Assembly (NCBI GenBank): GCA_964428355.1
Contig: CAYRYU010000010.1
Span: 39,334-103,333 of the forward strand
From: an uncultured bacterium
Lineage (GTDB): Bacteria > Muiribacteriota > Ozemobacteria > Ozemobacterales > Ozemobacteraceae
Reading direction: 5' to 3'
DNA: 64,000 bases
Made by a program: the position numbers and the translations under genes
The notes under the pieces: generated by a model
Told to the model about the DNA's origin: nothing
What the model saw: only the letters and a program-made list of their open reading frames with translations
Database searches by the model: none
Shown here: in pieces, positions 48,120 through 64,000 of the stretch
How positions within the stretch are numbered: the first letter of the stretch is position 1
Layout of the letters: each line of letters opens with the position of its first letter

Positions 48120-50321
48120 GTGACTGGAAGGTGCAGTAAGCCGCCTTTTGACTCCGAAAAAAGGAGAACGGATTCCCTGCGTGGCCGGCAGGGCTTCCTT
48201 CTCGCCCTGGTCTTTGGAACGATGGCGGTGCTGGCAATCTTCTTCATGGTCATGAGCTTTCTTTCGAGCGGTCAAACCCATGCGGCGACCCACTTCGTCG
48301 ATTCGGCGCGCGCTTTGTCCATCGCAATGGCGGGTGCTGAGTGGGCGATTTCCGAGTATGCGAGCGGATCCTACCACGAGGATGACGAACTGGGCCGAAT
48401 CCTCTTCGGAAGCGCACTCGATCCGGGCGAGGTTGTCCTTTCACCTCCCAAAGAGCTGGAAGACTATGTTTCCGGCACTCTGAACGGGAAACTCGACGTG
48501 AAGGTGAGGGTTTACGATATCGCTCCCTTGCCGATTCCCGAGGGGTTGAAGGGCTTCAACCAGGACCCCGTCGAAAAATCCGGGAGGATGGAGTTTTCCT
48601 CGGTGGGAACGGTTGGAAAGGCAAGCCGGAAGGTACTGATCAGGAAGGGGTTCAAGGTCGCAATGATCGTTCACCCCGTCCTGTCCAAATTCACGCTTTT
48701 CGTCAGGGAAAAGCTCAGCGGGCAGGATGTGAACGTTCTTGAGCGGAAAACCGGGAGCGCCGGATTCGAAAACGGGTCTCCCATCGTTCTCAACAATCAG
48801 GGGTCTGGAAGATCGTTTTCCGTTGTCCAGCCAGACCAAACGTTCGATCTTTCAACCGTCACGGGGGAAAAAGTGAAGGCTGGAAGGGTCGTCGACGGGT
48901 TTGAAGATCTAGTCAGGAGCTCCGGCTGGGTGTTCCTCAACTCTTCCAACAGGTCCGCACCCTGGACCCTGAACCTTTCAGGAAGCGGTGAAACCGGCGA
49001 GTTCGATGACCGGCTCCTTCTCCGTGTGGGACTCTACCGTAACGAGGGCCTCGAGAAGCTGCTCGCCCCAAAGGAAAAACTCGATTACACCGGGGAAAGG
49101 ATAGTGCGGTTGCTCGAGAGGTTCCAGGGGATGAAATCCGATTACGAGACACGTGCCCCCGATGGGATCGTCCGGAAGAAACCATGCAATATCCTGTATT
49201 TGCGGGGGCTCTTTCCCGGCGATCCCCCGAAAGCCTCATTGATCAGGCCTTTCGGCACGGGAACCCGGTTTTCCCCAACCCTGATGTTCGGGCCGGTCGA
49301 GATGCAATACCTGATACTTCGGGGTCTGGACGTCCATTTCCGGAATGCCGGGCCGGATGGGGGGAAACTCTTTTCCAATGTCCTCATTCCGGGTTTCCGG
49401 AATGAGATTGATTTCGCCCGGGCCTACGAACCGCGGTATCCGGACGATCCCGATATGGGGGCATTTGCCCGTCTCACGAACATCCCCGACCGTACCGATG
49501 CCGCCCCGGAGTTTCCCAGGTATTCCCGGGTCATGACCACGGTCGCCACAAGCCCTTTCATCGACGCCCTCGACTACATTTTCCTCGAGTCCCGTGAACG
49601 TGGAACACTGTTGAAGCCGGAATCGGTTGAATACCCCGTTCCGGTTCCCGGTATCATCGACAGGAAGGGCCAGGAGAAGATCCTGCCGTGGATCGCAAGG
49701 AACGACTCGCTTCGCGACTCCTTGATCGAAGCCCGGGGAGCTTTCGGAATGGGCAAGACACCGTTGTTCGAGGGGAACCTGTCTGATATCAAGGGCTGCA
49801 AGGAGTTCCAGTCGAAGATAACGGCCGTCTTCCCCTCCTTCAGTGAATTGGAAGCTTCTTTCCTGGAGGAAAAGGAAACCTCTTTCCAGTTGCGCCTACC
49901 CGGGATCGTATATGTGGGGGCAGACAACCTCAACATCGAGCCCCGCGACAAGGATCTCGTGATCACGAGCCCAGGAATCATTGTCAGCGGGGGCGATATC
50001 CACATCAAGGCTGCAGTGAAATCGAGCCATCCCGTCACGCTGGTCTCCCTTCGAAGCATATTCGTGGAAACGACTGAACAAATCGACGCCCATCTGGTTT
50101 GCCTGATGGGGACATTCACCGCACCGATCGGGTTCGACGTAAGGGGCGGGCTTGCCGCTTGCTCGATCGATACGTCGAAAATCGGGAACAAAGAAGCCAA
50201 GACCATCACCTTCGTACCCGAGCATGATCCCTATTCCGACCCCGACAAATGGCGGATGAAAACGGCCTACAGGTTCTATCTTTCGCAAGAGGAGGAATGC
50301 TGTGTTGAAGGCGGGAAATAG
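48120..50321 (+). CDS. Large (733 aa) membrane-anchored pilin-like protein, putative GspK-like minor pseudopilin/tip protein
   Basis: GTG start with GGGGAGAAAGG upstream. N-terminus RGRQGFLLALVFGTMAVLAIFFMVMSF resembles a prepilin-type hydrophobic helix lacking Glu+5, as in GspK-type pseudopilins. The rest has no recognisable motif. It overlaps the next pseudopilin gene. Confidence 0.45.
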   Translation: MTGRCSKPPFDSEKRRTDSLRGRQGFLLALVFGTMAVLAIFFMVMSFLSSGQTHAATHFVDSARALSIAMAGAEWAISEYASGSYHEDDELGRILFGSALDPGEVVLSPPKELEDYVSGTLNGKLDVKVRVYDIAPLPIPEGLKGFNQDPVEKSGRMEFSSVGTVGKASRKVLIRKGFKVAMIVHPVLSKFTLFVREKLSGQDVNVLERKTGSAGFENGSPIVLNNQGSGRSFSVVQPDQTFDLSTVTGEKVKAGRVVDGFEDLVRSSGWVFLNSSNRSAPWTLNLSGSGETGEFDDRLLLRVGLYRNEGLEKLLAPKEKLDYTGERIVRLLERFQGMKSDYETRAPDGIVRKKPCNILYLRGLFPGDPPKASLIRPFGTGTRFSPTLMFGPVEMQYLILRGLDVHFRNAGPDGGKLFSNVLIPGFRNEIDFARAYEPRYPDDPDMGAFARLTNIPDRTDAAPEFPRYSRVMTTVATSPFIDALDYIFLESRERGTLLKPESVEYPVPVPGIIDRKGQEKILPWIARNDSLRDSLIEARGAFGMGKTPLFEGNLSDIKGCKEFQSKITAVFPSFSELEASFLEEKETSFQLRLPGIVYVGADNLNIEPRDKDLVITSPGIIVSGGDIHIKAAVKSSHPVTLVSLRSIFVETTEQIDAHLVCLMGTFTAPIGFDVRGGLAACSIDTSKIGNKEAKTITFVPEHDPYSDPDKWRMKTAYRFYLSQEEECCVEGGK

Positions 50322-50721
50322 TCCCAGGCCTGCGGTCGGTTGCAAAGCCGGTGTGACCCTCGTCGAGGTGACCATCGCTCTCGCCATCATCGGGATCATC
50401 GCGGGAGTGATGTACCGGATAATCGACAGGCAAACCAGCCAGATGGGCAGCGATGATGCCTCTTCCCGATACTACATGGATCTCGGGTCCTTCGCCGAGA
50501 CCCTGAACTCGGATCTTTCCATGGCCCGAGTCGTCCATCCGGAATCCGGCGGCGTCAGTCTCCTCGTCAACCCCGATGGGAATCCCGGTTCGATCACGTA
50601 TTCCCTGAAGGGAAACACCATCGAGCGAAAGTTCCGTGAATCGGTGAGGGTTTTCGAGTTCACGAACCCGAAGCCCAGGCCCGGTTCCCTCATTTTTCGG
50701 ATCGAGGAGGTGAACCCATGA
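50302..50721 (+). CDS. Prepilin-type N-terminal cleavage/methylation domain protein (pseudopilin)
   Basis: GTG start with AGGAGG 7 nt upstream. KAGVTLVEVTIALAIIGIIAGV matches the G-[FV]-T-L-[IV]-E prepilin signature plus a hydrophobic helix. 139 aa. Confidence 0.65.
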   Translation: MLKAGNSPRPAVGCKAGVTLVEVTIALAIIGIIAGVMYRIIDRQTSQMGSDDASSRYYMDLGSFAETLNSDLSMARVVHPESGGVSLLVNPDGNPGSITYSLKGNTIERKFRESVRVFEFTNPKPRPGSLIFRIEEVNP

Positions 50722-51467
50722 GTCGTGGATCTTCCCCGAGTTTTCGAGGCCCGTTTTGTAGCTCGGTCTTCACTTTCACTGGCACCCTTGCGATTTTCAC
50801 ATCGATGCTCGTCCTATTCATGTTAACGGTCTGCGAAGCGAAATCCTTCAAGGCCGTCGTCGGATACGAAGGCGAGGTGATCGAGATCCCCCTTTCCCCG
50901 GGACGGATTGCTTCCCAGGCCGGGGAAATGCCCCTGCCGACATCGCCTGAGATGAACGTTGCCTTTCCCATGTCCCGGGACATTCCGACCGTCGTTCCGG
51001 GAAAGAATCCTCCCGCCGCGCCCTCTGTGCGCGAGCCGGTGGAAGATTCGGTCCCTCAAATGGACGGGGGGTTCCCCCTTGATAACGGCATTCCGACTGC
51101 CCGGAGCCTTCAAACGGCGCTCGATCTGGTGGGAAGGGTCATAGTTGCCGGGGTAAATTTCGAGTTCGATAGCGCGGACCTGACCGCCGATTCAGTCCCT
51201 TCACTGAAAGCGGTGCTGGAATACCTGAAGGATAATCCGGGAGTCAAGATCACCATCGAGGGGCACTGCGACACTTCCGGAGATACCTCTCTCAATCCGG
51301 TTCTCTCCCAGAACCGCGCGAACTCCGTGAAGAACTGGCTGGTTCAGCAGGGGGCTGACGGTTCCAGACTGTCTTCGGTCGGAATGAGTGATTCCAGGCC
51401 GATCGCGGACAATTCGACCCCCGAAGGCCAGGCAAAGAACCGCCGGGTGGAGTTGGTGAAGGAATGA
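50718..51467 (+). CDS. OmpA-family protein (C-terminal OmpA-like peptidoglycan-binding domain)
   Basis: GAGGAGG 7 nt upstream. N-terminal TM segment. C-terminus NFEFDSADLT...KITIEGHCDTSG...LSQNRANSVKNWLV...NRRVELV is the OmpA_C domain. Confidence 0.75.
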   Translation: MSRGSSPSFRGPFCSSVFTFTGTLAIFTSMLVLFMLTVCEAKSFKAVVGYEGEVIEIPLSPGRIASQAGEMPLPTSPEMNVAFPMSRDIPTVVPGKNPPAAPSVREPVEDSVPQMDGGFPLDNGIPTARSLQTALDLVGRVIVAGVNFEFDSADLTADSVPSLKAVLEYLKDNPGVKITIEGHCDTSGDTSLNPVLSQNRANSVKNWLVQQGADGSRLSSVGMSDSRPIADNSTPEGQAKNRRVELVKE

Positions 51468-51922
51468 GGGAAAGCCTCGCGGACCCCCGGGACGACGTGG
51501 CCCGGATCAGGAATATCCGGGGCTTCACCATCGTGGAAATCGTCATCGCCATGTTCGTCCTGGCGGTTTTCCTCCTTCCGCTCATGCAACACTTCATCAG
51601 TGCCCGCAGGGTTTCCCTTGCCGCACGGGATACCGTCATCGTGAACTCCTTCCAGACCGCGTGCGTTGGAGAACTCCGCCGGATCGAATACAATGACCTC
51701 GCTTCCGGGAAAGGTGCGACCCTTTCAGAAATCCTCAAAAGGTACAGCGGTGGTAAGACGGTTGGAAACCTCGATATCCAGACGTCGGTCGAAATCAACA
51801 GGTGTGTCCGGGCAAGGATGCTTACGATCGATGTGAGCTCGGAATTCAGGTTCCCAGGAACGAACGAAACCCAGGGAAAGCGAAAGATTGGCTTGCGCGG
51901 GTTCGCGTTTCCCAAGCCATGA
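51464..51922 (+). CDS. Prepilin-type N-terminal domain protein (pseudopilin)
   Basis: Leader MRESLADPRDDVARIRNIRG, then FTIVEIVIAMFVLAVFLLPL (G-F-T-I-V-E). 152 aa; overlaps its neighbours by 4 bp. Confidence 0.65.
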   Translation: MRESLADPRDDVARIRNIRGFTIVEIVIAMFVLAVFLLPLMQHFISARRVSLAARDTVIVNSFQTACVGELRRIEYNDLASGKGATLSEILKRYSGGKTVGNLDIQTSVEINRCVRARMLTIDVSSEFRFPGTNETQGKRKIGLRGFAFPKP

Positions 51923-52464
51923 GTCTGGAAGTGAGACCGTTCTCCTCAGAAAAGCGTGGAATGTCCCTCCTGGAACTTTGTCTTTTCACCCTGGTCGGGG
52001 GTCTTGTCCTTGGGTTCGTGGTCTTCTTCTTCTGGAGAACCCGCCGGATTCACGAGCAACAGACCCTGGAACTGACCTACCAGAACTCCTTCACCAGGCT
52101 TTGCGACAGGATGGAGAAAGACCTGACCGGCTGCAGGAGTTGGGAGATCAAGGCGGTTGCGGGAGCCAGCGATTCTCTTGTCGTAGACCGGATCGAAGGT
52201 CCGATCGTCTACGATATCAGGTTCGAGGCCGGGGAAATAGTCAGGGCTCAGGGCGGTGAGGTCTCCTCATTCGAGTTCAGGGGTGAGCGGGAGGGGCTCC
52301 TGAAGTATCTCGAGTTCATCGGTTCCCGGGGAGCAAGAACCCTGGGCCTGAGGATCGGACTGAAAACCAGCCCCGCCATCGACTTTTCCCATGACTTCAC
52401 CGTCCGGATCAGTGCCGACAAGGTTCCGGGCTTCTTCGAAAACCCCCAACTCAAGGAACGATGA
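51919..52464 (+). CDS. Prepilin-like protein (pseudopilin, degenerate signature)
   Basis: The ORF track gives 51802..52464; ATG 51919 overlaps the previous stop (ATGA). Leader MSLEVRPFSSEKRG, then MSLLELCLFTLVGGLVLGFVVFFFW (G-M-S-L-L-E plus a hydrophobic helix). Confidence 0.5.
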   Translation: MSLEVRPFSSEKRGMSLLELCLFTLVGGLVLGFVVFFFWRTRRIHEQQTLELTYQNSFTRLCDRMEKDLTGCRSWEIKAVAGASDSLVVDRIEGPIVYDIRFEAGEIVRAQGGEVSSFEFRGEREGLLKYLEFIGSRGARTLGLRIGLKTSPAIDFSHDFTVRISADKVPGFFENPQLKER

Positions 52465-52575
52465 TGAGGAATCACGGCTTTTCGATGTCCTGGGACTTTC
52501 CTGCCGGATTCGGTTGTCACAAAAAGTCCGTTTTTTCGTAGTTTGGTGTGGATCAGGAAAAAGGAGATGAACTAT

Positions 52576-53466
52576 ATGAAGACACGCGTCCTTGGTGTCC
52601 TCTTGTTGTCCGTGGTCGCGATCACGGTCTTACTGGGACCGACGGGTTCCGCCCAGGTTGCCCCTGGCTCTTCGGGCGCAGAACCCGATGGAACTGAAGG
52701 ATTCGGGGTGGCAGTGGGTTCCGCCCCCGCCTCTCCCGAGGGCCAGGATCCGTTGACCCCCAAACTGGAAGGGGTGGTCGAGGTCGATACCTACCTGAAT
52801 ATCCGCACCGGCCCCTGGGGAAAGATCATCGGTGGGTTGAACAACGGCGCGAAGGTCAAGATCATCAGCAAGGAAGGCGACTGGTTCAAGATCCTGAACG
52901 GCACAGAGATCAGCTACATCCACTCGTACTACGTCTCTGCACCGGGGTATCCGTCACACCAGGGAGTAGAGCCCCCGATACTCGGTTCGGATGAATCTCC
53001 CGCCCCGGTCACGGGCGACCCGGGCTCGAGCCCAACCGTCGACAACGGAACGTTCGGAGCCGAGCCCTGTTCCCCGATGCCCGATTCGGTCAGCTCGGAC
53101 TTCGGGCCCCGGGATATCGACTACGGCAGCAGATACCACGAAGGAATCGACCTTCCCATTTCCAACGGGACGCGGGTCAATGCCCTGGGAAACGGGGTTG
53201 TCACCGACGCCGGGTACAGTGAGGGTGGTGGGAACTATGTCTATATCCGGTATGACAACGGGTATACCTCCTTTTACTGTCACCTCGAAAGCGTGAGCGT
53301 CTCCAATGGCCAGAGGGTGGCCATCGGCCAGGACGTCGCCCTTTCGGACAACACCGGGACCCAGACCTCGGGGGCACACCTGCACATGGGAATCATGGAT
53401 TCGAGCGGGGAATACGTCAATCCCCGCGATGTTCCCGGCCTCGAATTTCCACCCCTCGTGGAGTAA
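52576..53466 (+). CDS. SH3b-domain + M23-family metallopeptidase (LytM-like), secreted
   Basis: Start MKTRVLGVLLLSVVA (52576), with AAGGAG 10 nt upstream, gives a signal peptide. SH3b-like YLNIRTGPWGKIIGGLNNGAKVKII. M23 motifs: HEGIDL, GNYVYIRYDNGYTSFYCHL, and NTGTQTSGAHLHMGI (HxH). Confidence 0.8.
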   Translation: MKTRVLGVLLLSVVAITVLLGPTGSAQVAPGSSGAEPDGTEGFGVAVGSAPASPEGQDPLTPKLEGVVEVDTYLNIRTGPWGKIIGGLNNGAKVKIISKEGDWFKILNGTEISYIHSYYVSAPGYPSHQGVEPPILGSDESPAPVTGDPGSSPTVDNGTFGAEPCSPMPDSVSSDFGPRDIDYGSRYHEGIDLPISNGTRVNALGNGVVTDAGYSEGGGNYVYIRYDNGYTSFYCHLESVSVSNGQRVAIGQDVALSDNTGTQTSGAHLHMGIMDSSGEYVNPRDVPGLEFPPLVE

Positions 53467-54853: not shown

Positions 54854-55552
54854 TCAGGAGCCTTCGGTTACGAAATGAAGTCGATTCCGCTCGAAGGGTT
54901 TGTTTCGCCAGTGCTCTTCAATGCTTTGGACAAATTGAGCGGAGACGACCTTCGCCCGCTCGATCAACCAATCTCCGGACTCCCTTCGAAGGTAGATGCC
55001 TTCCATCGGGCCCTCTGCAAAACCGGAATGCCCAATCAATGACGGGAGGGAATGAGCGAGGAAAACGCCTTGAGCTAGCTTGGGAACCGACCTGAGGCCA
55101 AGCTTTTCAAGGAGTTGATCTCTCCTTCTCGTTCCCCAAAATCTCCCCTCGACCCTGTCATAGACGTCGAAGCCAAGGAACCAGTCCGGGAGGAGGTCAT
55201 AGCGGATGGCATGGCGAGCCAAACACCATTCCCCAAACAACATCAGGTTCGCGCCTAGGTTCTCGACAAGGCCCTCATTTCTTGCCCGTAACCAGTTCCA
55301 GAGGCCAGAAAACTGCCTTTCCCCGGGTGGGGTAAGGTAAGTCCCTCGATTTTGAGCCTTCAGGCTGCCGTCCACCCCCACCGAAAAGCCGAGGTTCGCC
55401 CCGTCGATTTTTTCCTCAACGACAACTTCCTGGCTGAGAAATCTCTCCACCTCAGATGGGGACAGAACCTTGTCGGCCCGGGGAGGTACCCTCCCAAGCC
55501 ACAAAAGGTGGGGGGTATGAGGAAACTTGAAAAACTCTACAGACCGGCTCAT
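54854..55552 (-). CDS. RNA ligase family protein (nucleotidyltransferase KxDG motif)
   Basis: FPHTPHLLWL followed by EKIDGANLGFS (motif I, Lys-x-Asp-Gly) and later GEWCLARH / EGIYLRRE conserved blocks of the small RNA-ligase family. Local GC is visibly lower than the flanks. Confidence 0.6.
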   Translation of the reverse strand: MSRSVEFFKFPHTPHLLWLGRVPPRADKVLSPSEVERFLSQEVVVEEKIDGANLGFSVGVDGSLKAQNRGTYLTPPGERQFSGLWNWLRARNEGLVENLGANLMLFGEWCLARHAIRYDLLPDWFLGFDVYDRVEGRFWGTRRRDQLLEKLGLRSVPKLAQGVFLAHSLPSLIGHSGFAEGPMEGIYLRRESGDWLIERAKVVSAQFVQSIEEHWRNKPFERNRLHFVTEGS

Positions 55553-55749
55553 GGACGTCTCTGGTGATGGGCAAGAAATGAAAGGAACCCATCCAAATCA
55601 AGTGTATCCGAGGTTTCCCAAAGAGGCAAGATCTATCAATGAGTTTGGAAGCCAAGGGTCGCAACGGCATACCATCACCGGAAACTGGAGGTTTCTCCTC
55701 ACATTGACTATGGTGTATAATCCCCCTGGATTTTCCAGGAGACTCCAAG

Positions 55750-56952
55750 ATGGATCCCAACCAGGTCGGACACCGCCAGAGGCTGAGAGACCGGTTTCTT
55801 TCCGGCGCAGGCCAGGCATGTACTGACCCGGAGCTCCTCGAAATCCTCCTTGGTTATGCCCTCCCCCGACGGGATGTTGCTCCCCTTGCCCGAGGTCTAC
55901 TTGAAAAGTTCCGGACCCTGAGGGGGGTCCTGACCGCTGATTTTGGGGCATTGGTGGCCGAGAAGGGCATGACTTCAGCAACCGCCACTCTCCTGAGACT
56001 GATCGGCAGCCTCACCGGCCCGTCTCAACCTCCCGTCAAGGGGAAGATAGGGCATCCCAAAGCTCTGCAACGCACCGTCAAAGATTCGGACCCTCCAACC
56101 CCGGTTCAGCTGACCCTGAAGCCATCTGAGGGTCAGGTGTCCCACCTCGGGCCGACAGCACCGCAGAAGGAGGAATCTCTCCCTCCCAAGCCGTCCTCCA
56201 AGAAGCCTCCCGAGTCTCACCTTTTTGGCAAGTCAGTTCTGGAAGAGGCCATCAAGTTGGCACCCCTGGCCCCGCTCACCGAAGAATTGAATGTGCTCCG
56301 AGAGTTCTTCCAGGGAAACCTTCATTTTAGCGCCCAACTGACGCGCCAACGTTACTCCTCTTACATCCTCAAGCGACTTTTCCCGTCTGGACATCCTGAT
56401 AAGCCCTTGCTCCAGTTCGCGCACCTTTTTTCGGGTTCCCGGGAATGGAGAGAAGTGGCTTTTCATCGATTTCTCAGGGCGGAACCCCTCCTGACACAGA
56501 TCATCCTCGAGTTGGTCCTTCCATCGGTTGGACGGGGAAAGATCTTAAGACAGGCCTTGCGCGAATATCTCCACAGGAAGTTTCCCGATTCCCGAGCCAT
56601 TGATGATTGTCTGCAAGCCGCAATCGATGCGGGGAAGTCGGGCGGCATCTGGACAGCGGATCGGCGGGAGGTCTCCTTCTCCTTTCGAGAGCCTCTCCCT
56701 CGCTCTTTCGCATTCATCCTGCATGACGAATTCCCCACTCCGGGGATGTATGACATTCCGAGTATTTTGGTCACTCCCCGATTCTCGGCCATGTTGTGGA
56801 ACCCTGACCGGTTGCTTCCGATGTGCTATGCACTTCGGAATCGGGGGATTTTGGCCAAGGTTTCCGAGATCGATACCGTTCGTCAGGTCAGTACCCGGTT
56901 TACCCCTACCCAGCTCATCGACTATCTGGAAAAACCACGGGAAATGGAATGA
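55750..56952 (+). CDS. RadC-N-terminal (UPF0758 HhH) domain fused to uncharacterised C-terminal domain; no JAB/MPN domain
   Basis: N-terminal 85 aa (RQRLRDRFLSGAGQACTDPELLEILLGYALPRRDVAPLARGLLEKFRTLRGVLTADFGALVAEKGMTSATATLLRLIGS) match the RadC/UPF0758 N-terminal helix-hairpin-helix region. A Pro-rich linker follows, then about 230 aa lacking the HxHPSG JAB motif. AGGAGA RBS. The stop overlaps the next gene's start (ATGA). Confidence 0.55.
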   Translation: MDPNQVGHRQRLRDRFLSGAGQACTDPELLEILLGYALPRRDVAPLARGLLEKFRTLRGVLTADFGALVAEKGMTSATATLLRLIGSLTGPSQPPVKGKIGHPKALQRTVKDSDPPTPVQLTLKPSEGQVSHLGPTAPQKEESLPPKPSSKKPPESHLFGKSVLEEAIKLAPLAPLTEELNVLREFFQGNLHFSAQLTRQRYSSYILKRLFPSGHPDKPLLQFAHLFSGSREWREVAFHRFLRAEPLLTQIILELVLPSVGRGKILRQALREYLHRKFPDSRAIDDCLQAAIDAGKSGGIWTADRREVSFSFREPLPRSFAFILHDEFPTPGMYDIPSILVTPRFSAMLWNPDRLLPMCYALRNRGILAKVSEIDTVRQVSTRFTPTQLIDYLEKPREME

Positions 56953-57482
56953 AAACGACTCAGATCATCGAAACCCTCCGTGAAAAGCTCAATGTTTCCG
57001 GCGGGAGGCATTTGTACGGCGTTCTGGGAACCTACCCTTCCCTTGCCGCCTTTGGAGAAAAACTTCATCAAGCCCGGACGGTCGAACGGAAGCGATTTCC
57101 CGAACCGATCGATGTGAATCGGGGAATTCTCGACTCCCTTCCCGATGAGGAGTTTTGCACCCTGGCCGGCAACGAAGCTCGGATGCCGGAACCCACGGCC
57201 GCCCAGGTGGATCGCGCATTCGAGGCATTCCTTAGGAAATCTCTGGGCAACCATGGGTTGGTGGTATTGCACCACCTCGAGCTGGTGTTCGCCTATGATC
57301 TCGAATTCTCCCCTCTGAGGACCCTGGCCACGGATAGGCATCGGATCATCCTCCTGCTCCCGGGTCATCGCCGTGGGGCGCGCATCGTTCTGTATCCTGA
57401 CCAGAATGACCGCGAATGCAGCCTCCCCGTAAACCTGATCGCAAACAACCACCTGTTTGAAATTACCGATGGAGATGCCTGA
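56949..57482 (+). CDS. Small uncharacterised protein, translationally coupled (BrxB-position gene)
   Basis: 178 aa, MKTTQIIETLREKLNVSGG... No motif I can assign. It sits between the RadC-N fusion gene and the BrxC-like ATPase. Confidence 0.45.
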   Translation: MKTTQIIETLREKLNVSGGRHLYGVLGTYPSLAAFGEKLHQARTVERKRFPEPIDVNRGILDSLPDEEFCTLAGNEARMPEPTAAQVDRAFEAFLRKSLGNHGLVVLHHLELVFAYDLEFSPLRTLATDRHRIILLLPGHRRGARIVLYPDQNDRECSLPVNLIANNHLFEITDGDA

Positions 57483-57484
57483 AG

Positions 57485-60400
57485 ATGGGCAAGAATGACG
57501 ACCTTTTCACCCAGAGGAAACCCCTTGCGGATATCTGCAAGGTCCCTGAGACCATCATTTCGGTATATGCCTTGGAAAAACACGTCTGGGAGGATGGCAA
57601 CTCCCCGAAGGCCCGGCAGAACCGCAAGCCGGAGCTCCAATCCCTGGAGGAATTCCAATTCGACCCGGTCCGGCCGTTCCTGACGGATATCTTCCGCAAC
57701 ATGGCAGCCCCCTGGAAGAAAGACCGCCGGGATGCCACAGTTGGCCAGGGATACTGGATCCAGGCGGAGTTCGGCTCGGGAAAATCCCATCTCCTCTGCG
57801 TGCTTTCAGCTCTTGCTCTCGGTGACCCGAAAGCCTGGGAAATCGTCAGGGAAAAGGAAAAGGCGGTAGGAAAAGGCAAGCGCGACAGCCTTTTCCGATT
57901 CTGGGAAGAAGGCCTGCAAGCCAAAAGCAGCGGTGGAAGCAAAGGAATCTTCGTCATCGTCAAGACCCTGGTTGGCTCTGGTGGTGGGACGGTCGGCTTG
58001 TCCCAGCAGGGCCGCCGCCTCTCAGAGTACATCATTGACGCAGCAAAAGAGCAACTTCAGGCGGAACTGGGGAAAAACCTCTCGCTATATCCCACCGAGC
58101 TACTGGCCGATCGTTTCTTCCAGGAGGATCTCGACCGCTATCGTAAGGACCTCAAGAAGTTCCTCCGCGACCCGCAATTCTTTGACGAGGATGCCTTCCA
58201 GGACGTCGATGAGTTCCTGCACCAGATCCGCCAGAACAAGTCTCCCGACTACAAGCGGAGCTGCGGGAACAAGCTATGGCGGTTCTATACGGAATTTCTG
58301 AAAGTCCAGCCCCATATTGCCGCGGAGACCGAGGATATCCTCAAGCATCTCGTGGAAACCATCCTGAATGAGGGCTATTCCGGAGTGCTATTGGTCCTCG
58401 ACGAGGTTTCCCTGTTCATGAAGGACCGTTCCGACGAACAGCGAAATGACGATGAGAAAACGTTGGTCGTTTTGGCCAATCGGCTGGCTAAAATCTACAA
58501 CCTGCCGATCTGGACGGTCTGCTCCGCCCAGCAGGCCATCGAGAGCAAGATGGGCCACAAGAACATCTTCGCCGATGATCGACTGAAGCTCGTGAAGCTC
58601 CTCGAAAAGGACACGGATTACTATCAGATCGTCCTATCCCGAGTCCGTGAGATAACGGCCCCAGGGGAGATCGGGCCGTATTTCATCCACTACAGCAAGG
58701 GGTTTTCCTGGCCCAAGGCAATCGGCGAAGAGGAATTCAAGCGGTTTTTCCCCTTCCACAAGCCTGCTCTCGAGGTCCTCCGGGACATCACTCATGAATT
58801 GACGACCGCGCGCTCCGCCATCCATTTCATGCACCAGACCCTCAAACACCAGATCAAGGTCAGGGGAAATGAGCTTATTCGGCTATGGGAATTATTCGAC
58901 GAAGCCGTCCGTTATGAAGAGGACCCCAGTGGCGCACATGCCGGGTTGGTCAGCATCAAAACCAAGAAGGACATGGAATACCGATCCTATGAGGCATGCA
59001 GGCGGCAGATCGATTCGATGACTCGTGGCCACCTAAAGGTCTATCGTGACCGGGCGGTCAAGGTCGTCCAGACCCTGTTTTTGTGCCATGTAGGGCATGC
59101 ATTTCTCCAGGGTCTGACCCCCGAGGAACTGGCCACCGCAGTCCTGATCGAGTTGAAACCTGATTCGACCATCGAAGAAAACGTCCAACATTATGAAACC
59201 CTGGCGGAAAATCTCCGCAAGGAGTTACGGCAGGTCATCGAGACCATTGATGATGAGAACCGTTGCCGCTACCGATTCGAACCGATCGTCACCGGGATAG
59301 ATCCGAGACAGGAGTTCGCCAAGGCCAGGGATGAAGCTGAAGCCAACGAGCTGATGCTCCGCCAGGCATGGGACCATCTCTTGTCCCTCGATCATTGGGA
59401 GATCCGGACGCGGCAGATGACCCTTGATTTGACCCATGGCTATGAACCCCTTTTCCAGGGGTATGCGCCCCCCATCGATCGGCCCTCCTTGGGCCAGGAG
59501 CCTTCACTGGACGTGATCTGGCTGGGACGTCAGGTTACCGGGAAGGTTCGGATGACCGATCTGAGTCACTTGGGTAGCGACAGCCAACTCCTGCCCCCCA
59601 TCGAAACCGATGCGACCGACCATGACTTTGCGGTCTACATCAGTACCCGACCGGTTTCCGACCTCCACGTGAATAAGCTGCTTAAGGGACGAAAAGACCC
59701 CCGCCTGATCATCTGGTCCCCCGCTGAACTAAACGCCGATGAGCGGGACCGCCTTCTCAACTTTGCCGCCTATCGACGCCTGGTGGAACAATTCGGTGGG
59801 AAGGACTCTGAAGATTCGGTGACGGTCATCAACTGGGTCTCGACAAACCTGGAAACCGAAATGGGGCGCATCGGAAAGATAGTGCCCGATTGTTACGCCC
59901 GGGGCCGGATGGATGCCGAAGACAATTCCCGCATGGAGTTCCACGTCGCCGGGGCCCTGGCGGCAATCCTCACTCCCGTTGTCGAACGGGTTCTGACGAC
60001 GGGGTATGTCTCCCATGATCTGGTGTTTGAGCCCCCCTTCGTGTTCCGCAAGGAAGAGGCCGTCAAGGTGATCAACGGTATTGTGAAGACCGGGGAGATC
60101 CCGAAGAACACCAAGCCAAATCAGAACATCAGCGCCGCCCAGAATTTCGGGTTCGGTCTGAAGATCATGAAGAAGAAAGCCGAGCGTGTTCTCGATATCG
60201 ACGACAATCCCTACGTGCAAGATATTCTGCAGTTCGTCGAGGACAAGCTGACCGATGCCAACCAGACCATGAAGTTTGATACGTTGTACAAAAATTTCAT
60301 GGGAAGGGGTGGACCCAAGGATTACGGCTTGACGAGACGAATGGTACAATTGTTCGTTCTGTGCCTTGTCCGGATCGGAAAGCTGAGGATCCTCGCCGGC

Positions 60401-61834
60401 GGGAAGGCGGGGCTGACAAACCCCCTCATCGATCAGGGGTCGATTGGGGGTATCGATTTCTCGGCGAAAATCCTCGATGGGCTTGCGGAAGTGCAGAAGA
60501 TCGCCCGCCCGCAGAATTGGGATGTGTTCCGCCCCTTTGCCGAGATCCTCCTCGGAAGGCCCATTCCCCTTTCTGCCGACGAGGCCGCCGTCGCCGCGGC
60601 CACTCGGGACGTAGCCACCCTCTTTCGCGCCGAAGCGGAAGGGGTGGGCCGTCTTCAAGAACGGGCCCGGGAGGTGTTCTCGGCTCTCGGAGTCCAGAAT
60701 CCCTACGGCCCGGATCTCGAAAAGATCGGCAAGTTACTGGGCTCCGACCTTGGCCAGGATCCCATCGCGGGAATCTTGTTCGGATTCCGTGAAAACCTTG
60801 GCTACACGGCCTTCGATGACAATGTCGCGCGTCCAGAGGATGTCGATGATCTGGCGACCCGGTGGCGGGCATACCGGGATCTGGCGGTTTTCTTGCGCTA
60901 CGACCGGGAGATCGTGACCGCCCAAGCCTTCGCGGCTCATCCTGTTCCGAAGGGAAAGGAAACCGAGCATCTACGGGAGCAGCAACGATGGCTTGGGAAA
61001 CGCCTGGCCGAAATCAAACCCTTCATCGACTCAGAGGTGAAGCTGAAAACCGAGCTATTGGGTACGGACGCCACCGGAAAATCCGAATCCGGCACCTTGT
61101 CCGCAACTCGACAGGCTTTCGGGGACGTGTATCTGCCCGTCCACGATCTGGTTGTTACCCGATGTGACAAGGCCCGTGAAGACATCGGGGCCCTCGGAGA
61201 AAGCGACGATTTCAAAGTAATCGCCGCTCTGGACCGCATTCCCGCCGCCGGACAGGCAATGGCGGATACGCTTCGTCAGGAACTGGGGAAGGTGACGGCA
61301 TCCGTGCCTCGATGTTTGGAAGGTTCGCGGGTCGCCGTCGAGGAACAACTGCGGCGTCACCCCGGGCACGACTGCGGCATCACTCTCGCAAACCAAGCCG
61401 AACTCCTGGAATGTGCCACCAATTCCGTCGAACAGGCCCGACAACGGGTCCAACAGGTTCTCGGGGTGAAACTCGACGTGTTGCAAAACCCGAAGATTCG
61501 CGAGCGTCTGCAACAGGGGGCAAATGATCCTTCCATCGCCGCCATCCTCAAAGCGGAGGACCGGCAGGCATTGGAGGAGGCCATCCGGGGATTGTTGGCG
61601 GAGGGAGTCGATCTTGGGAAGCTGGTGAACCGGTTCCTGAAGAAGATCGTCCTCCGGCCGGTGAAACTGGCGGATTTCCATCCCTCTCTTCACACGCTGG
61701 AGCGAAACCAGATCCCCATCATCGTCGAGGAGTTTCGCCTGTATCTCGAATCGGAGATGAAAAAGGCGGAAGGGGGCGACCCGCAACACGGCTCCGGGGG
61801 GGAGGACGTGCTCCCCATCCTGAAGGTCGAGTGA
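57485..61834 (+). CDS. BrxC/PglY-like P-loop ATPase (DUF499-type) of a BREX-like system
   Basis: 1449 aa. Walker A in context GYWIQAEFGSGKSHLLCVLSALAL at about aa 90-110, the GxxGxGKSH hallmark of BrxC/PglY. Walker B-like VLLVLDEVSLFM. Large helical C-terminal region. Followed 7 bp later by a PglZ gene. Confidence 0.75.
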   Translation: MGKNDDLFTQRKPLADICKVPETIISVYALEKHVWEDGNSPKARQNRKPELQSLEEFQFDPVRPFLTDIFRNMAAPWKKDRRDATVGQGYWIQAEFGSGKSHLLCVLSALALGDPKAWEIVREKEKAVGKGKRDSLFRFWEEGLQAKSSGGSKGIFVIVKTLVGSGGGTVGLSQQGRRLSEYIIDAAKEQLQAELGKNLSLYPTELLADRFFQEDLDRYRKDLKKFLRDPQFFDEDAFQDVDEFLHQIRQNKSPDYKRSCGNKLWRFYTEFLKVQPHIAAETEDILKHLVETILNEGYSGVLLVLDEVSLFMKDRSDEQRNDDEKTLVVLANRLAKIYNLPIWTVCSAQQAIESKMGHKNIFADDRLKLVKLLEKDTDYYQIVLSRVREITAPGEIGPYFIHYSKGFSWPKAIGEEEFKRFFPFHKPALEVLRDITHELTTARSAIHFMHQTLKHQIKVRGNELIRLWELFDEAVRYEEDPSGAHAGLVSIKTKKDMEYRSYEACRRQIDSMTRGHLKVYRDRAVKVVQTLFLCHVGHAFLQGLTPEELATAVLIELKPDSTIEENVQHYETLAENLRKELRQVIETIDDENRCRYRFEPIVTGIDPRQEFAKARDEAEANELMLRQAWDHLLSLDHWEIRTRQMTLDLTHGYEPLFQGYAPPIDRPSLGQEPSLDVIWLGRQVTGKVRMTDLSHLGSDSQLLPPIETDATDHDFAVYISTRPVSDLHVNKLLKGRKDPRLIIWSPAELNADERDRLLNFAAYRRLVEQFGGKDSEDSVTVINWVSTNLETEMGRIGKIVPDCYARGRMDAEDNSRMEFHVAGALAAILTPVVERVLTTGYVSHDLVFEPPFVFRKEEAVKVINGIVKTGEIPKNTKPNQNISAAQNFGFGLKIMKKKAERVLDIDDNPYVQDILQFVEDKLTDANQTMKFDTLYKNFMGRGGPKDYGLTRRMVQLFVLCLVRIGKLRILAGGKAGLTNPLIDQGSIGGIDFSAKILDGLAEVQKIARPQNWDVFRPFAEILLGRPIPLSADEAAVAAATRDVATLFRAEAEGVGRLQERAREVFSALGVQNPYGPDLEKIGKLLGSDLGQDPIAGILFGFRENLGYTAFDDNVARPEDVDDLATRWRAYRDLAVFLRYDREIVTAQAFAAHPVPKGKETEHLREQQRWLGKRLAEIKPFIDSEVKLKTELLGTDATGKSESGTLSATRQAFGDVYLPVHDLVVTRCDKAREDIGALGESDDFKVIAALDRIPAAGQAMADTLRQELGKVTASVPRCLEGSRVAVEEQLRRHPGHDCGITLANQAELLECATNSVEQARQRVQQVLGVKLDVLQNPKIRERLQQGANDPSIAAILKAEDRQALEEAIRGLLAEGVDLGKLVNRFLKKIVLRPVKLADFHPSLHTLERNQIPIIVEEFRLYLESEMKKAEGGDPQHGSGGEDVLPILKVE

Positions 61835-61841
61835 GGGCGGG

Positions 61842-64000
61842 ATGTCGTTGATTCACGAATGGCTGAAACCGAGGCTGGAAGCCGCTTCTGGCCAGGACCG
61901 GATCCTGATCCGGGACCCGTTCCGGCTCCTTTCCGATTCCGACGGATTCCTGCACCAATTCGCAAAAACCCACGGGTTTACCGTGCTGGTGGCCTCCACG
62001 AATCTGGTGTTCCGTGACCTGTATGAAAAAGCCCGACAGGACGAAGGCGGGAGTCGTCTCCTGATCGTGGACCGTGCGACGCCGCGACAGCGGTCCCAGG
62101 GCGGACGCGTGGCCGCGGTCGCGCCGTTCTATCCCGACCTTCTGGCCGAAACATCCCCCGAAGCCCGGATCGAAATCGGATTGCGCGGGTTTCTCCAGGA
62201 GTGGACTCACGATCCGCTTTGGCCCGCCAGGGTCGAGGATCCCCGTTTTTCCCGGCTGATCACAGCGCACTTGAAGGGTGTCCTGGTTGCCCACAGGAAC
62301 CTGAGGATGGCCTACCCTGATCGCTTCACAGATCGCGATCTCGAAGTCATTATCGCATATGCAGCCATGGGAGTACCCGAATCCGCATTCAGGCATCAGG
62401 ACGCCGAAGAATATTGGAAAATCGCTCTTCTTGGCCCCCGGGCGTTCGAGGAGCTCGAGAGCATTGCTCCTACCATCACCCGGCCGATCAGGGAGAAACT
62501 TCGCCAGGCTGCTCCTCCGTTCTGCCACTTCGCCACCCATGATCCGGAACTCGTGCTGAGGGCTTTCTATCTGGGAGTCATTCTCTCCCAACATGTCGAG
62601 AACTGGTCCCCCCTTCTGGCCAACATCGACCCGGACCTTTCCCCGCTTGCCCATCTTTCATCGCAAGCTCTGATGGACGCGGCGGACAAACTCCAAAATC
62701 TTGATCCGAAACGTGTCCGAATTGAAATCGCCCAAGTCGAGAACTCCCTGACCGCTGCCCACCTCGAATTCCTCGTGTTTTCCCAATGGAATTGGCATGA
62801 CCCGAAACGATGGGCTGATGCCTTCAGGCGCGAACGCTCCTCGGGATTGTTGCGAAGTCTCATCCTGTTACTGGCACTGGATGACTCTCTTGGAACCAAT
62901 CCCGCCGCGGGGTCTCATAAAGAGTTACACCAACTGTTGACCGACCCGGTTGGGGCGGGGTTACCCGCAGGGGAACTCCCGGACGCGGCGGAAGGGGCGA
63001 TCCGGGAGGCCTACCTGCTGGCCCTTTCCGTTCAGGCCCTCCGTCGTGATCTGGTATTGGGAAACAAAAATCTGGGAATGCTCAAGCCCGCCCAGCTGTC
63101 CCTGGCGCCCTTTCTGAAACTGTGGAAGGAGCAGAGGGTCAGCGGTCTCGAATATCGTGTTTCCCTTCTCGAGCGCAAGGTGCATCATGGAAGGATGCTT
63201 CCCAGAGCCGAGGCCGACCTTCCTCCCCGTTGCCGGGCCGCCCTGGAGTCGATCCGGTCCCGCCTGGGGGCATTGGAAACCGACGTTGGAAGCCAGTTGC
63301 AAAGCCTCGATGCCCGGTTCCAGGACCTGGTCGGGCGAGACTACCCGGGTTGGGTGTCCGGAAAAGGGGAGATCACCACCACCAGCTCTTTTCTGGAGCG
63401 GATCCTGAAGCCCCATTGGGATCCCCAGAGGGAAAAAGCCGTCCTGTTCATTTTCGACGGGATGCGGATCGACATCTGGCAGGAACTGGTCTGGCCCGCG
63501 TTGGAGGATCGCCTGGAGGCTCTCGTCGATCAGGTCGGGTCATCGCTCCTCCCTTCCGAGACCCACATTTCACGGAAAGCCATCAGCGCGGGAACCACTC
63601 CTGATGGGTTCGATTCCCATGCCGCCGAGAGCACGCTCCTGGAGTCCGCGCTGGCCCAGAAGTTCCAGTGGAGGGGGGCTGTCGATACCGTCGCCCCCGA
63701 CTCAGCCGGAACCGGAGAGACCGTTCGGTATCGGGCAGGCAACCTCGATGTCTACATTCTCGATCTGTGCGACAAGGAACTCCACAAGATCGGGGTGAAG
63801 ACCCTGGCCGACAGAAGGCAGGTGCCTGAGCGCCCGTTGGTGTTCATCTATCAGCAGTTGATCAAGAACATCATCGACCACGAAGTGATGACGATCGTCC
63901 GGGCGCTCACCCCGGGGACGAAGGTCTTCGTCACGGCAGACCACGGCTTCAGCCGAGTCGGTCGGGAGAAGTTGTGGCTGGATGCCGAATGGCTGAATGC
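61842..64000 (+). CDS. pglZ: PglZ-domain protein (alkaline-phosphatase superfamily, BREX BrxZ/PglZ), 3' end beyond window
   Basis: Not in the ORF track because no stop lies inside the window. I read the frame from ATG 61842 (MSLIHEWLKPRLEA) through 64000 without a stop. PglZ motifs occur in frame: VLFIFDGMRIDIWQEL (about 63441), LPSETHISRKAISAGTTP, and VFVTADHGFSRVG near the end. Confidence 0.75.
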   Translation, partial: MSLIHEWLKPRLEAASGQDRILIRDPFRLLSDSDGFLHQFAKTHGFTVLVASTNLVFRDLYEKARQDEGGSRLLIVDRATPRQRSQGGRVAAVAPFYPDLLAETSPEARIEIGLRGFLQEWTHDPLWPARVEDPRFSRLITAHLKGVLVAHRNLRMAYPDRFTDRDLEVIIAYAAMGVPESAFRHQDAEEYWKIALLGPRAFEELESIAPTITRPIREKLRQAAPPFCHFATHDPELVLRAFYLGVILSQHVENWSPLLANIDPDLSPLAHLSSQALMDAADKLQNLDPKRVRIEIAQVENSLTAAHLEFLVFSQWNWHDPKRWADAFRRERSSGLLRSLILLLALDDSLGTNPAAGSHKELHQLLTDPVGAGLPAGELPDAAEGAIREAYLLALSVQALRRDLVLGNKNLGMLKPAQLSLAPFLKLWKEQRVSGLEYRVSLLERKVHHGRMLPRAEADLPPRCRAALESIRSRLGALETDVGSQLQSLDARFQDLVGRDYPGWVSGKGEITTTSSFLERILKPHWDPQREKAVLFIFDGMRIDIWQELVWPALEDRLEALVDQVGSSLLPSETHISRKAISAGTTPDGFDSHAAESTLLESALAQKFQWRGAVDTVAPDSAGTGETVRYRAGNLDVYILDLCDKELHKIGVKTLADRRQVPERPLVFIYQQLIKNIIDHEVMTIVRALTPGTKVFVTADHGFSRVGREKLWLDAEWLN

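Follow-up and report, generated by a model that had tools for sequence, protein, structure and literature searches.

A RadC-type helix-hairpin-helix head on a BrxA-fold protein encoded at the start of a divergent BREX operon

Introduction

BrxA is the least understood core subunit of the bacteriophage exclusion (BREX) systems. Some of these systems require it and others can do without it, and to our knowledge no DNA specificity is known for it. BrxA of E. fergusonii binds double-stranded DNA (PMC9240713), and BrxA of Acinetobacter binds BrxC and lowers the DNA binding of BrxC (PMC13326643). In the present study a gene termed brxA* was analysed. It lies in a stretch of 64,000 nucleotides (the window) from an uncultured bacterium of the Ozemobacteraceae (assembly GCA_964428355.1, contig CAYRYU010000010.1, positions 39,334 to 103,333 of the forward strand). 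The open reading frame (ORF), at 55750..56952 on the plus strand, encodes a RadC_N-linker-BrxA fusion protein of 400 amino acids (aa). The product probably serves as BrxA in a deep-branching BREX system and carries a RadC-type helix-hairpin-helix (HhH) head.

In the latest BREX survey, BrxL is entirely absent from type 3 systems, and a combination of BrxL with PglXI is not described. RadC and UPF0758 do not appear in its main text or supplements, where the letters 'HhH' occur only as secondary-structure strings. No prior description of RadC together with BrxA or BREX was found in the literature.

Results

The brxA* product consists of a RadC-type (HhH)2 N-terminal domain and a tripartite BrxA-fold C-terminal domain of helix-turn-helix (HTH) and winged HTH (wHTH) modules, joined by a disordered linker of about 50-70 residues. 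The RadC-type domain, with the GHRQRLRDRF signature and the G73 hairpin, is encoded at 55762..56019 on the plus strand (residues ~5-90). The linker follows at 56020..56220 (+; residues ~91-157) and the BrxA-fold domain, an HTH and two winged HTH, at 56221..56937 (+; residues ~158-396). The AlphaFold2 model, built on the family alignment, had a mean predicted local distance difference test (pLDDT) score of 85 with two confident domains. Residues 8-89 were confident, residues 92-154 disordered (pLDDT <50 at 92-147 and 150-154), and residues 164-394 had a pLDDT of >95. Domain analysis shows no catalytic domain.

A search of PDB sequences with the family profile had the HhH domain of Hef (1x2i, E 0.0038) as its sole match. 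BrxA was not retrieved, and comparison at the level of the fold was therefore needed. Foldseek with the brxA* model against the PDB ranked BrxA (7zge_A) at the top, with probability 1.00, a TM score of 0.65 (on the length of BrxA) and a root mean square deviation of 3.3, followed by SspB and then by BpuJI recognition domains. SspB and BpuJI are structural relatives reported for BrxA (PMC9240713; PMC12839542). Among 153 full-length homologues (~384 aa, 40-46% identity) a few had a precomputed Pfam BrxA match. When 36 aligned family members were scanned singly, the BrxA model (PF08849) was matched in 20 at E<=1 (best E 2.5e-7). Four members (P0059, P0067, P0069 and P0106) exceeded the BrxA gathering score (24.8-31.1 vs 23 bits), with alignments spanning profile positions 10-130 of 184. 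The brxA* product is BrxA by fold and context, and borderline by sequence.

The C-terminal domain family is small and distinct. Searched against 1.84 billion representatives, its profile retrieved 304 clusters (50% identity) at E<=1e-3, from many bacterial phyla and Methanothrix; at E<=1e-30 the number was 120. This narrow yield, which leaves out the large canonical BrxA family, could be attributed to a genuinely new domain, fused to a RadC-N DNA-binding module, in a protein that would serve a BREX-like ATPase as an optional accessory or as a targeting factor. The C-terminal half of the window copy, likewise, has no Pfam, NCBIfam or PADLOC match (PADLOC gives none for brxA* at E<=1). The match to the BrxA fold largely refutes this explanation and leaves it improbable. 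A preliminary description of the locus, whose interpretation is partly supported, had called the C-terminal domain one of unknown function and the protein a possible DNA-binding or targeting accessory. The first holds as far as Pfam is concerned and is superseded by the fold found with AlphaFold2 and Foldseek; of the second, the RadC-N head is real, and with a C-terminal domain of BrxA fold the protein is probably a BREX subunit rather than an optional add-on.

The operon in the window is tightly packed, with brxA* followed by gene 2, a brxC-like ATPase gene and pglZ. An AGGAG Shine-Dalgarno sequence (55737..55741, +; read from sequence) lies 8 nt 5' of the brxA* ATG, and the start codon is consistent with the starts of the homologues. 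A TATAAT hexamer is present upstream at 55716-55721; no full sigma-70 promoter was found upstream of brxA* by a promoter scan. The start of gene 2 (56949..57482, +; 177 aa) overlaps the stop of brxA* (ATGA), and the two genes are translationally coupled. Its start was called independently at the same site on a 2.7-kb Logan contig (L001) carrying the brxA* product, and the same 4-nt overlap of brxA and brxB occurs in the canonical BREX of pEFER. The brxC gene (57485..61834, +) starts 3 nt after gene 2 and encodes a very divergent large P-loop ATPase of 1449 aa, matched by Pfam DUF6079 (E 7e-6) and BrxC_BrxD (E 0.0018), by PADLOC BrxC (E 2e-9) and by NCBIfam BREX_BrxC (E 9.4e-8). The pglZ gene (61842..64000, +) runs off the end of the window after the first 719 of ~970 aa, and its product is matched by Pfam PglZ (E 1.1e-6) and NCBIfam BREX_PglZ_3 (E 3.1e-6). 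The scores of BrxC and PglZ are far under every curated type-specific cutoff. A BrxC/PglY-type ATPase and PglZ are thus encoded in one operon, and the earlier placement of brxA* at the head of a BREX-like operon is upheld.

To place the operon among its relatives, 40 loci from GTDB species representatives were fetched by a PglZ-anchored search and their ORFs labelled by us. They came from Chloroflexota, Geobacteraceae, Phycisphaerae, Verrucomicrobiota, Acidobacteriota, Thermodesulfobacteriota, Cyanobacteriota, Spirochaetales, Synergistaceae, Omnitrophota, WOR-3 and the archaeon Methanothrix, and their PglZ proteins are 44-52% identical to that of the window. Two layouts were seen, A-F-X-C-Z-L and A-F-C-Z-X-L, where X is a PF01555 methylase of ~850 aa (PADLOC PglXI, E 1e-89) and not a PglX-class methylase of types 1 and 2. 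L is BrxL, with BrxL_N, BrxL_ATPase and Lon_C domains (TIGR02688, 476 vs 329 bits; PADLOC E 8e-170). In all loci with enough upstream sequence (19/19) brxA* lies directly 5' of the small gene, which is always found between brxA* and brxC or pglXI. Every complete copy of brxA* has both domains, except in L029 (no N-domain) and L039 (split gene). BrxL was present in 30 of the 31 loci having more than ~0.6 kb beyond pglZ; in the remaining one (L031) brxL was found too, its pglZ having been dropped by the gene picker. Among the 40 loci there was no conserved helicase cluster that would represent BrxHII, and BrxL is the sole conserved extra gene. The gene content of the operon family is therefore brxA*, a small BrxB/BrxF-like gene, brxC, pglZ, a PglXI-type methylase gene and brxL. 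BrxL, a hallmark of type 1, thereby occurs together with PglXI, a hallmark of type 3, and the operon fits neither type.

Loss of the methylase from the window operon was considered and rejected, as the window fits the layout of relatives with the methylase after pglZ. Since all nine testable loci with the A-F-C-Z order of the window have a methylase after pglZ, and BrxL is conserved downstream, the window operon most likely continues into pglXI and brxL, judging from these relatives. A record look-up with the BrxC and gene 2 products of the window, aimed past base 64000, found no record.

The first position of brxA* in the operon, with three HTH/wHTH modules and an HhH module in its product, would also suit a BrxR-like transcriptional regulator, that is, a multi-wHTH protein repressing or activating the BREX operon; the window, moreover, is without the small HTH_17 gene seen in front of brxA* in L002-L004 and L049-L050. 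Such a role is quite improbable, because brxA* is co-transcribed and translationally coupled with structural genes, a candidate regulator of the HTH_17 type is encoded separately in many loci, and BrxA is a structural subunit in the systems studied (PMC13326643).

The N-terminal domain was compared with RadC. Pfam UPF0758_N (PF20582) matched residues 8-79 of the brxA* product with E 1.2e-6 (28.9 bits vs a cutoff of 27.1). In the family members scanned singly, UPF0758_N was matched in 34/36, HHH_2 in 12 and HHH_5 in 9. Two NCBIfam RadC models covered only their first 75-82 of 212-218 positions (E 3.7e-9 and 2.2e-7). Alignment to Sinorhizobium meliloti RadC showed 21 invariant positions in the N-domain and no counterpart of the HNHPSGD JAB motif in the brxA* product, and no RadC/JAB Pfam match was obtained in the product at E<=1. 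In tblastn against 72,556 plasmid records, only residues 2-89 of the brxA* product were matched, by annotated radC N-termini (38-54% identity), and against 50,697 phage records, which carry no annotation, only the N-terminal ~100 residues were; a full-length match was found in neither set. The brxA* product is not a member of the RadC family, since it lacks the JAB domain, which was looked for specifically. The public label 'DNA repair protein RadC', which several homologues bear, is therefore misleading for the brxA* family. An ordinary RadC (UPF0758), or a RadC-like anti-restriction gene that belongs to a mobile element and merely adjoins BREX, is extremely unlikely in spite of this naming and of three IMG/VR contigs that bear the operon: the missing JAB domain and HxHPSG motif refute the former, and the lack of full-length plasmid or phage matches and the strict linkage to brxC-pglZ speak against both. 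The preliminary description had assigned the N-terminal ~85 residues to the RadC/UPF0758 HhH segment, reported JAB and HxHPSG to be absent and seen a Pro-rich linker, and these observations were borne out throughout.

In the window copy the linker is rich in Pro and Lys, with 15 P among 68 residues; across the family it is 46-85 residues long and variable in sequence. Within it lies a conserved island, Q-phi-x-L-F-[D/E], most commonly QATLF[D/E] or QTTLFE, with Q120 kept in at least 90% of the alignment. In the window copy the motif is degenerate (Q120-L-T-L-K-P125, 56107..56124, +). The family motif fits the revised consensus for binding of the bacterial beta-clamp (sliding clamp), which is Q-phi-x-[L/M]-[F/L] or Q-phi-x-[L/M]-x-[F/L] (10.1101/2025.08.20.671105). 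The strict consensus was present in 71 of 193 fused proteins against 1.3 expected from shuffled linkers, and a loose Q-x-x-L-F type motif in 144 against 5.3, the shuffle comparison being a measure of motif conservation and not of independent recurrence. In proteins without the RadC head (n=26) the strict consensus was found in none and the loose pattern in 5 (about 1 expected from shuffles). Many headless or other-head proteins have an x-L-F-[P/D/E] peptide N-terminal to the BrxA domain, as judged by eye, and the full motif is rare among them. The window peptide QLTLKP does not fit the clamp-binding consensus, and L-F is missing in both Methanothrix copies. A PIP-box-like replacement of the motif in the Methanothrix copies was examined, and no convincing PIP box was seen. 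Canonical pEFER BrxA has no such linker extension.

Sister proteins of the C-domain clade have another helical N-terminus of ~100 residues (e.g. P0198) or a short one (P0231). P0198 and P0231 occupy the operon position of brxA* and are followed by a 166-177-aa gene, in the contexts A-F-C-X-Z or HTH_17-A-F; downstream of P0198, BrxC, the PF01555 methylase and PglZ are also encoded. Because sister clades at the same operon position bear another head or none, the BrxA-fold domain is the constant core, and the RadC head is only one among several modules added to it. The alternative ~100-residue helical head, which has no Pfam match, was also seen in P0179, P0195, P0218, P0242 and L047 (10001-11059). 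In this alternative-head clade, whose operon is A-F-C-X-Z, a second conserved peptide (RFPEPILR) precedes the BrxA domain.

Neighbouring genes of the operon and its variation among loci were recorded as well. Divergent from brxA* in the window is a gene for an RNA ligase of 232 aa (54854-55552, -; PF09414, E 1.8e-32). It fills the position where other loci have the HTH_17 gene, is also present on L001 and is not conserved beside the operon in other loci. The HTH_17 (excisionase/MerR-like) gene, a candidate operon regulator of 72-74 aa, lies directly 5' of brxA* in L002-L004 (9780-9998), L049 (1403-1627) and L050 (75-299). Further upstream in the window, an envelope gene cluster (48120-53466, +) unrelated to the BREX operon encodes two proteins with prepilin-type N-terminal methylation motifs (50302-50721 and 51464-51922, +), an OmpA-domain protein (50718-51467, +) and an SH3 and M23 peptidase protein (52543-53466, +).

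In loci of Verrucomicrobiota and Acidobacteriota, a gene of ~385 aa is inserted between brxC and pglZ (L013 8823-9983, L015 8835-9986, L041 8814-9983, L045 8844-9983). It is a Ser/Thr protein kinase by Pfam (L015 copy only), reminiscent of PglW, the kinase found in type 2 BREX. Just 5' of brxC, a ~260-aa DUF7662 protein is encoded in L005 (14192-14998), L007 (4858-5637), L042 (4510-5637) and L052 (9525-10331); these inserts gave no NCBIfam or PADLOC match. Right after brxL in L008 (15016-20861) and L009 (14229-20861) are genes for a second, distantly related PF01555 methylase (779 aa) and for an SF1 (AAA_11/AAA_12) helicase of 1429 aa, which may represent another defence module beside the first. 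An operon led by brxA* is likewise present on L051, L052 and L053, the IMG/VR contigs, which are classed as viral, and phage-like genes (DUF4815, Amidoligase_2, GATase_6, GGACT) precede the operon in L003 (1-9579). Some copies of the operon may ride on prophages or other mobile elements. In L018, L030 and L039, brxC, pglZ or the methylase gene is split into several ORFs, as in decaying systems or frameshift-rich long-read assemblies.

Discussion

The fold of the C-terminal domain, the coupling of brxA* to the small BrxB/F-like gene and the brxC and pglZ genes that come next point to a BREX subunit of the BrxA kind with a RadC-type head. Several observations weigh against this assignment. Pfam gave no match for the last 250 residues of the protein encoded in the window, even at E<=10, and the naming of the window protein as BrxA rests on its fold and its homologues. 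Alignment of the C-domain profile with pEFER BrxA by hhalign was collinear over 133 columns and only marginal (E 0.0098, probability 4%), which is why the clade is taken as distant from canonical BrxA at the sequence level. Gene 2 is probably the BrxB/BrxF equivalent, an inactive P-loop subunit, from its position, its size and weak BrxF matches: NCBIfam BREX_3_BrxF gave E 4e-4 (homologue E 2.4e-4), with 20-21 bits vs a cutoff of 50, and PADLOC BrxF E 0.009. The comparison of gene 2 with pEFER BrxB by hhalign was not significant (E 0.083), and its AlphaFold2 model (pLDDT 52) was too poor for a fold search. Neither pglXI nor brxL is inside the window. DNA binding by either domain of the family, finally, is predicted by analogy.

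If the brxA* product is a BrxA subunit, its C-terminal domain would act like type 1 BrxA, binding double-stranded DNA and contacting or modulating BrxC. HhH modules make sequence-independent contacts with the DNA backbone and mediate dimerisation in Hef/XPF. The N-terminal domain may add such a backbone anchor, as in repair proteins, or alternatively a surface for dimerisation or self-association as in Hef/XPF. It could raise the dwell time of the subunit on DNA or direct the subunit to particular DNA structures. The brxA* product would then serve as a DNA-tethering or modulating adaptor of the BrxB-BrxC-PglZ-methylase complex.

The linker peptide Q-phi-x-L-F-[D/E] might be a working clamp-binding motif that tethers the BREX complex, via the BrxA-like subunit, to DnaN at replication forks. 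On the strength of the sequence pattern this is a doubtful though conceivable proposal, and the motif might just as well dock to another subunit of the BREX complex. A link between BREX and the sliding clamp was not found described in the literature. BREX sites are non-palindromic and methylated on one strand only, and replication leaves one daughter duplex unmarked per site. Clamp coupling, if true, would for this reason provide a direct route to timely re-methylation of the host, with a parallel in the PCNA-coupled maintenance methylation of eukaryotes. It could equally serve to sense replicating phage DNA, and the RadC-type HhH head would then be an anchor at forks or DNA ends. The family would gain considerably in significance if binding of the linker motif to the sliding clamp were demonstrated.

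In this lineage BrxA bears interchangeable heads at its N-terminus and a conserved peptide in its linker. Such natural variants of head and linker hint at what BrxA targets, be it DNA, the fork or a partner protein. Operons of this type, with PglXI, BrxL and highly divergent BrxC and PglZ, lie outside the six-type scheme. Systems of this kind may be under-called in anaerobic bacteria and methanogens, because PADLOC 2.0 gives brxA* no significant match (E<=0.01) and gene 2 only a weak one to BrxF.

The brxA* gene encodes an unusual variant of a known BREX part and not a new kind of protein. With BrxA (PF08849/DUF1819; 7ZGE of E. fergusonii pEFER, 3BHW) its product shares the fold of juxtaposed HTH modules, although the sequence identity is just 13-14% and the Pfam model does not pick up the window copy. 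Unlike BrxA, it has a RadC-type HhH head of 90 residues and a disordered linker of ~65 residues with a conserved short motif; it also has a third wHTH, a feature that has been reported for BrxA of type 3. The structurally related SspB and the BpuJI/FokI recognition domains belong to other systems (phosphorothioate-sensing Ssp and type IIS restriction, respectively) and are without the HhH head. With RadC/UPF0758, the N-terminal ~85 residues share 34-54% identity (alpha-proteobacterial and Fusobacterium RadC N-termini), the GHRxRLRxRF signature and both hairpins; in place of the JAB metalloprotease domain of RadC there is a BrxA domain, and brxA* is in a defence operon whereas RadC is in a housekeeping locus.

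At the level of the operon, brxA* systems share with type 1 BREX (brxA-brxB-brxC-pglX-pglZ-brxL) the order A-B-C-...-Z-...-L, a BrxL with Lon_C and the number of six genes. They differ from it in having a methylase of the PF01555/PglXI class instead of PglX, BrxC and PglZ far below the type-specific cutoffs, and a BrxA with a RadC head. With type 3 BREX (brxF-brxC-pglXI-brxHII-pglZ-brxA) they share the PglXI-class methylase, a tripartite BrxA, a small subunit that is by weak matches closest to BrxF and a PglZ closest to the type 3 model. Unlike type 3, they have BrxL in place of the BrxHII helicase, and brxA* is the first gene of the operon, whereas brxA of type 3 is the last.
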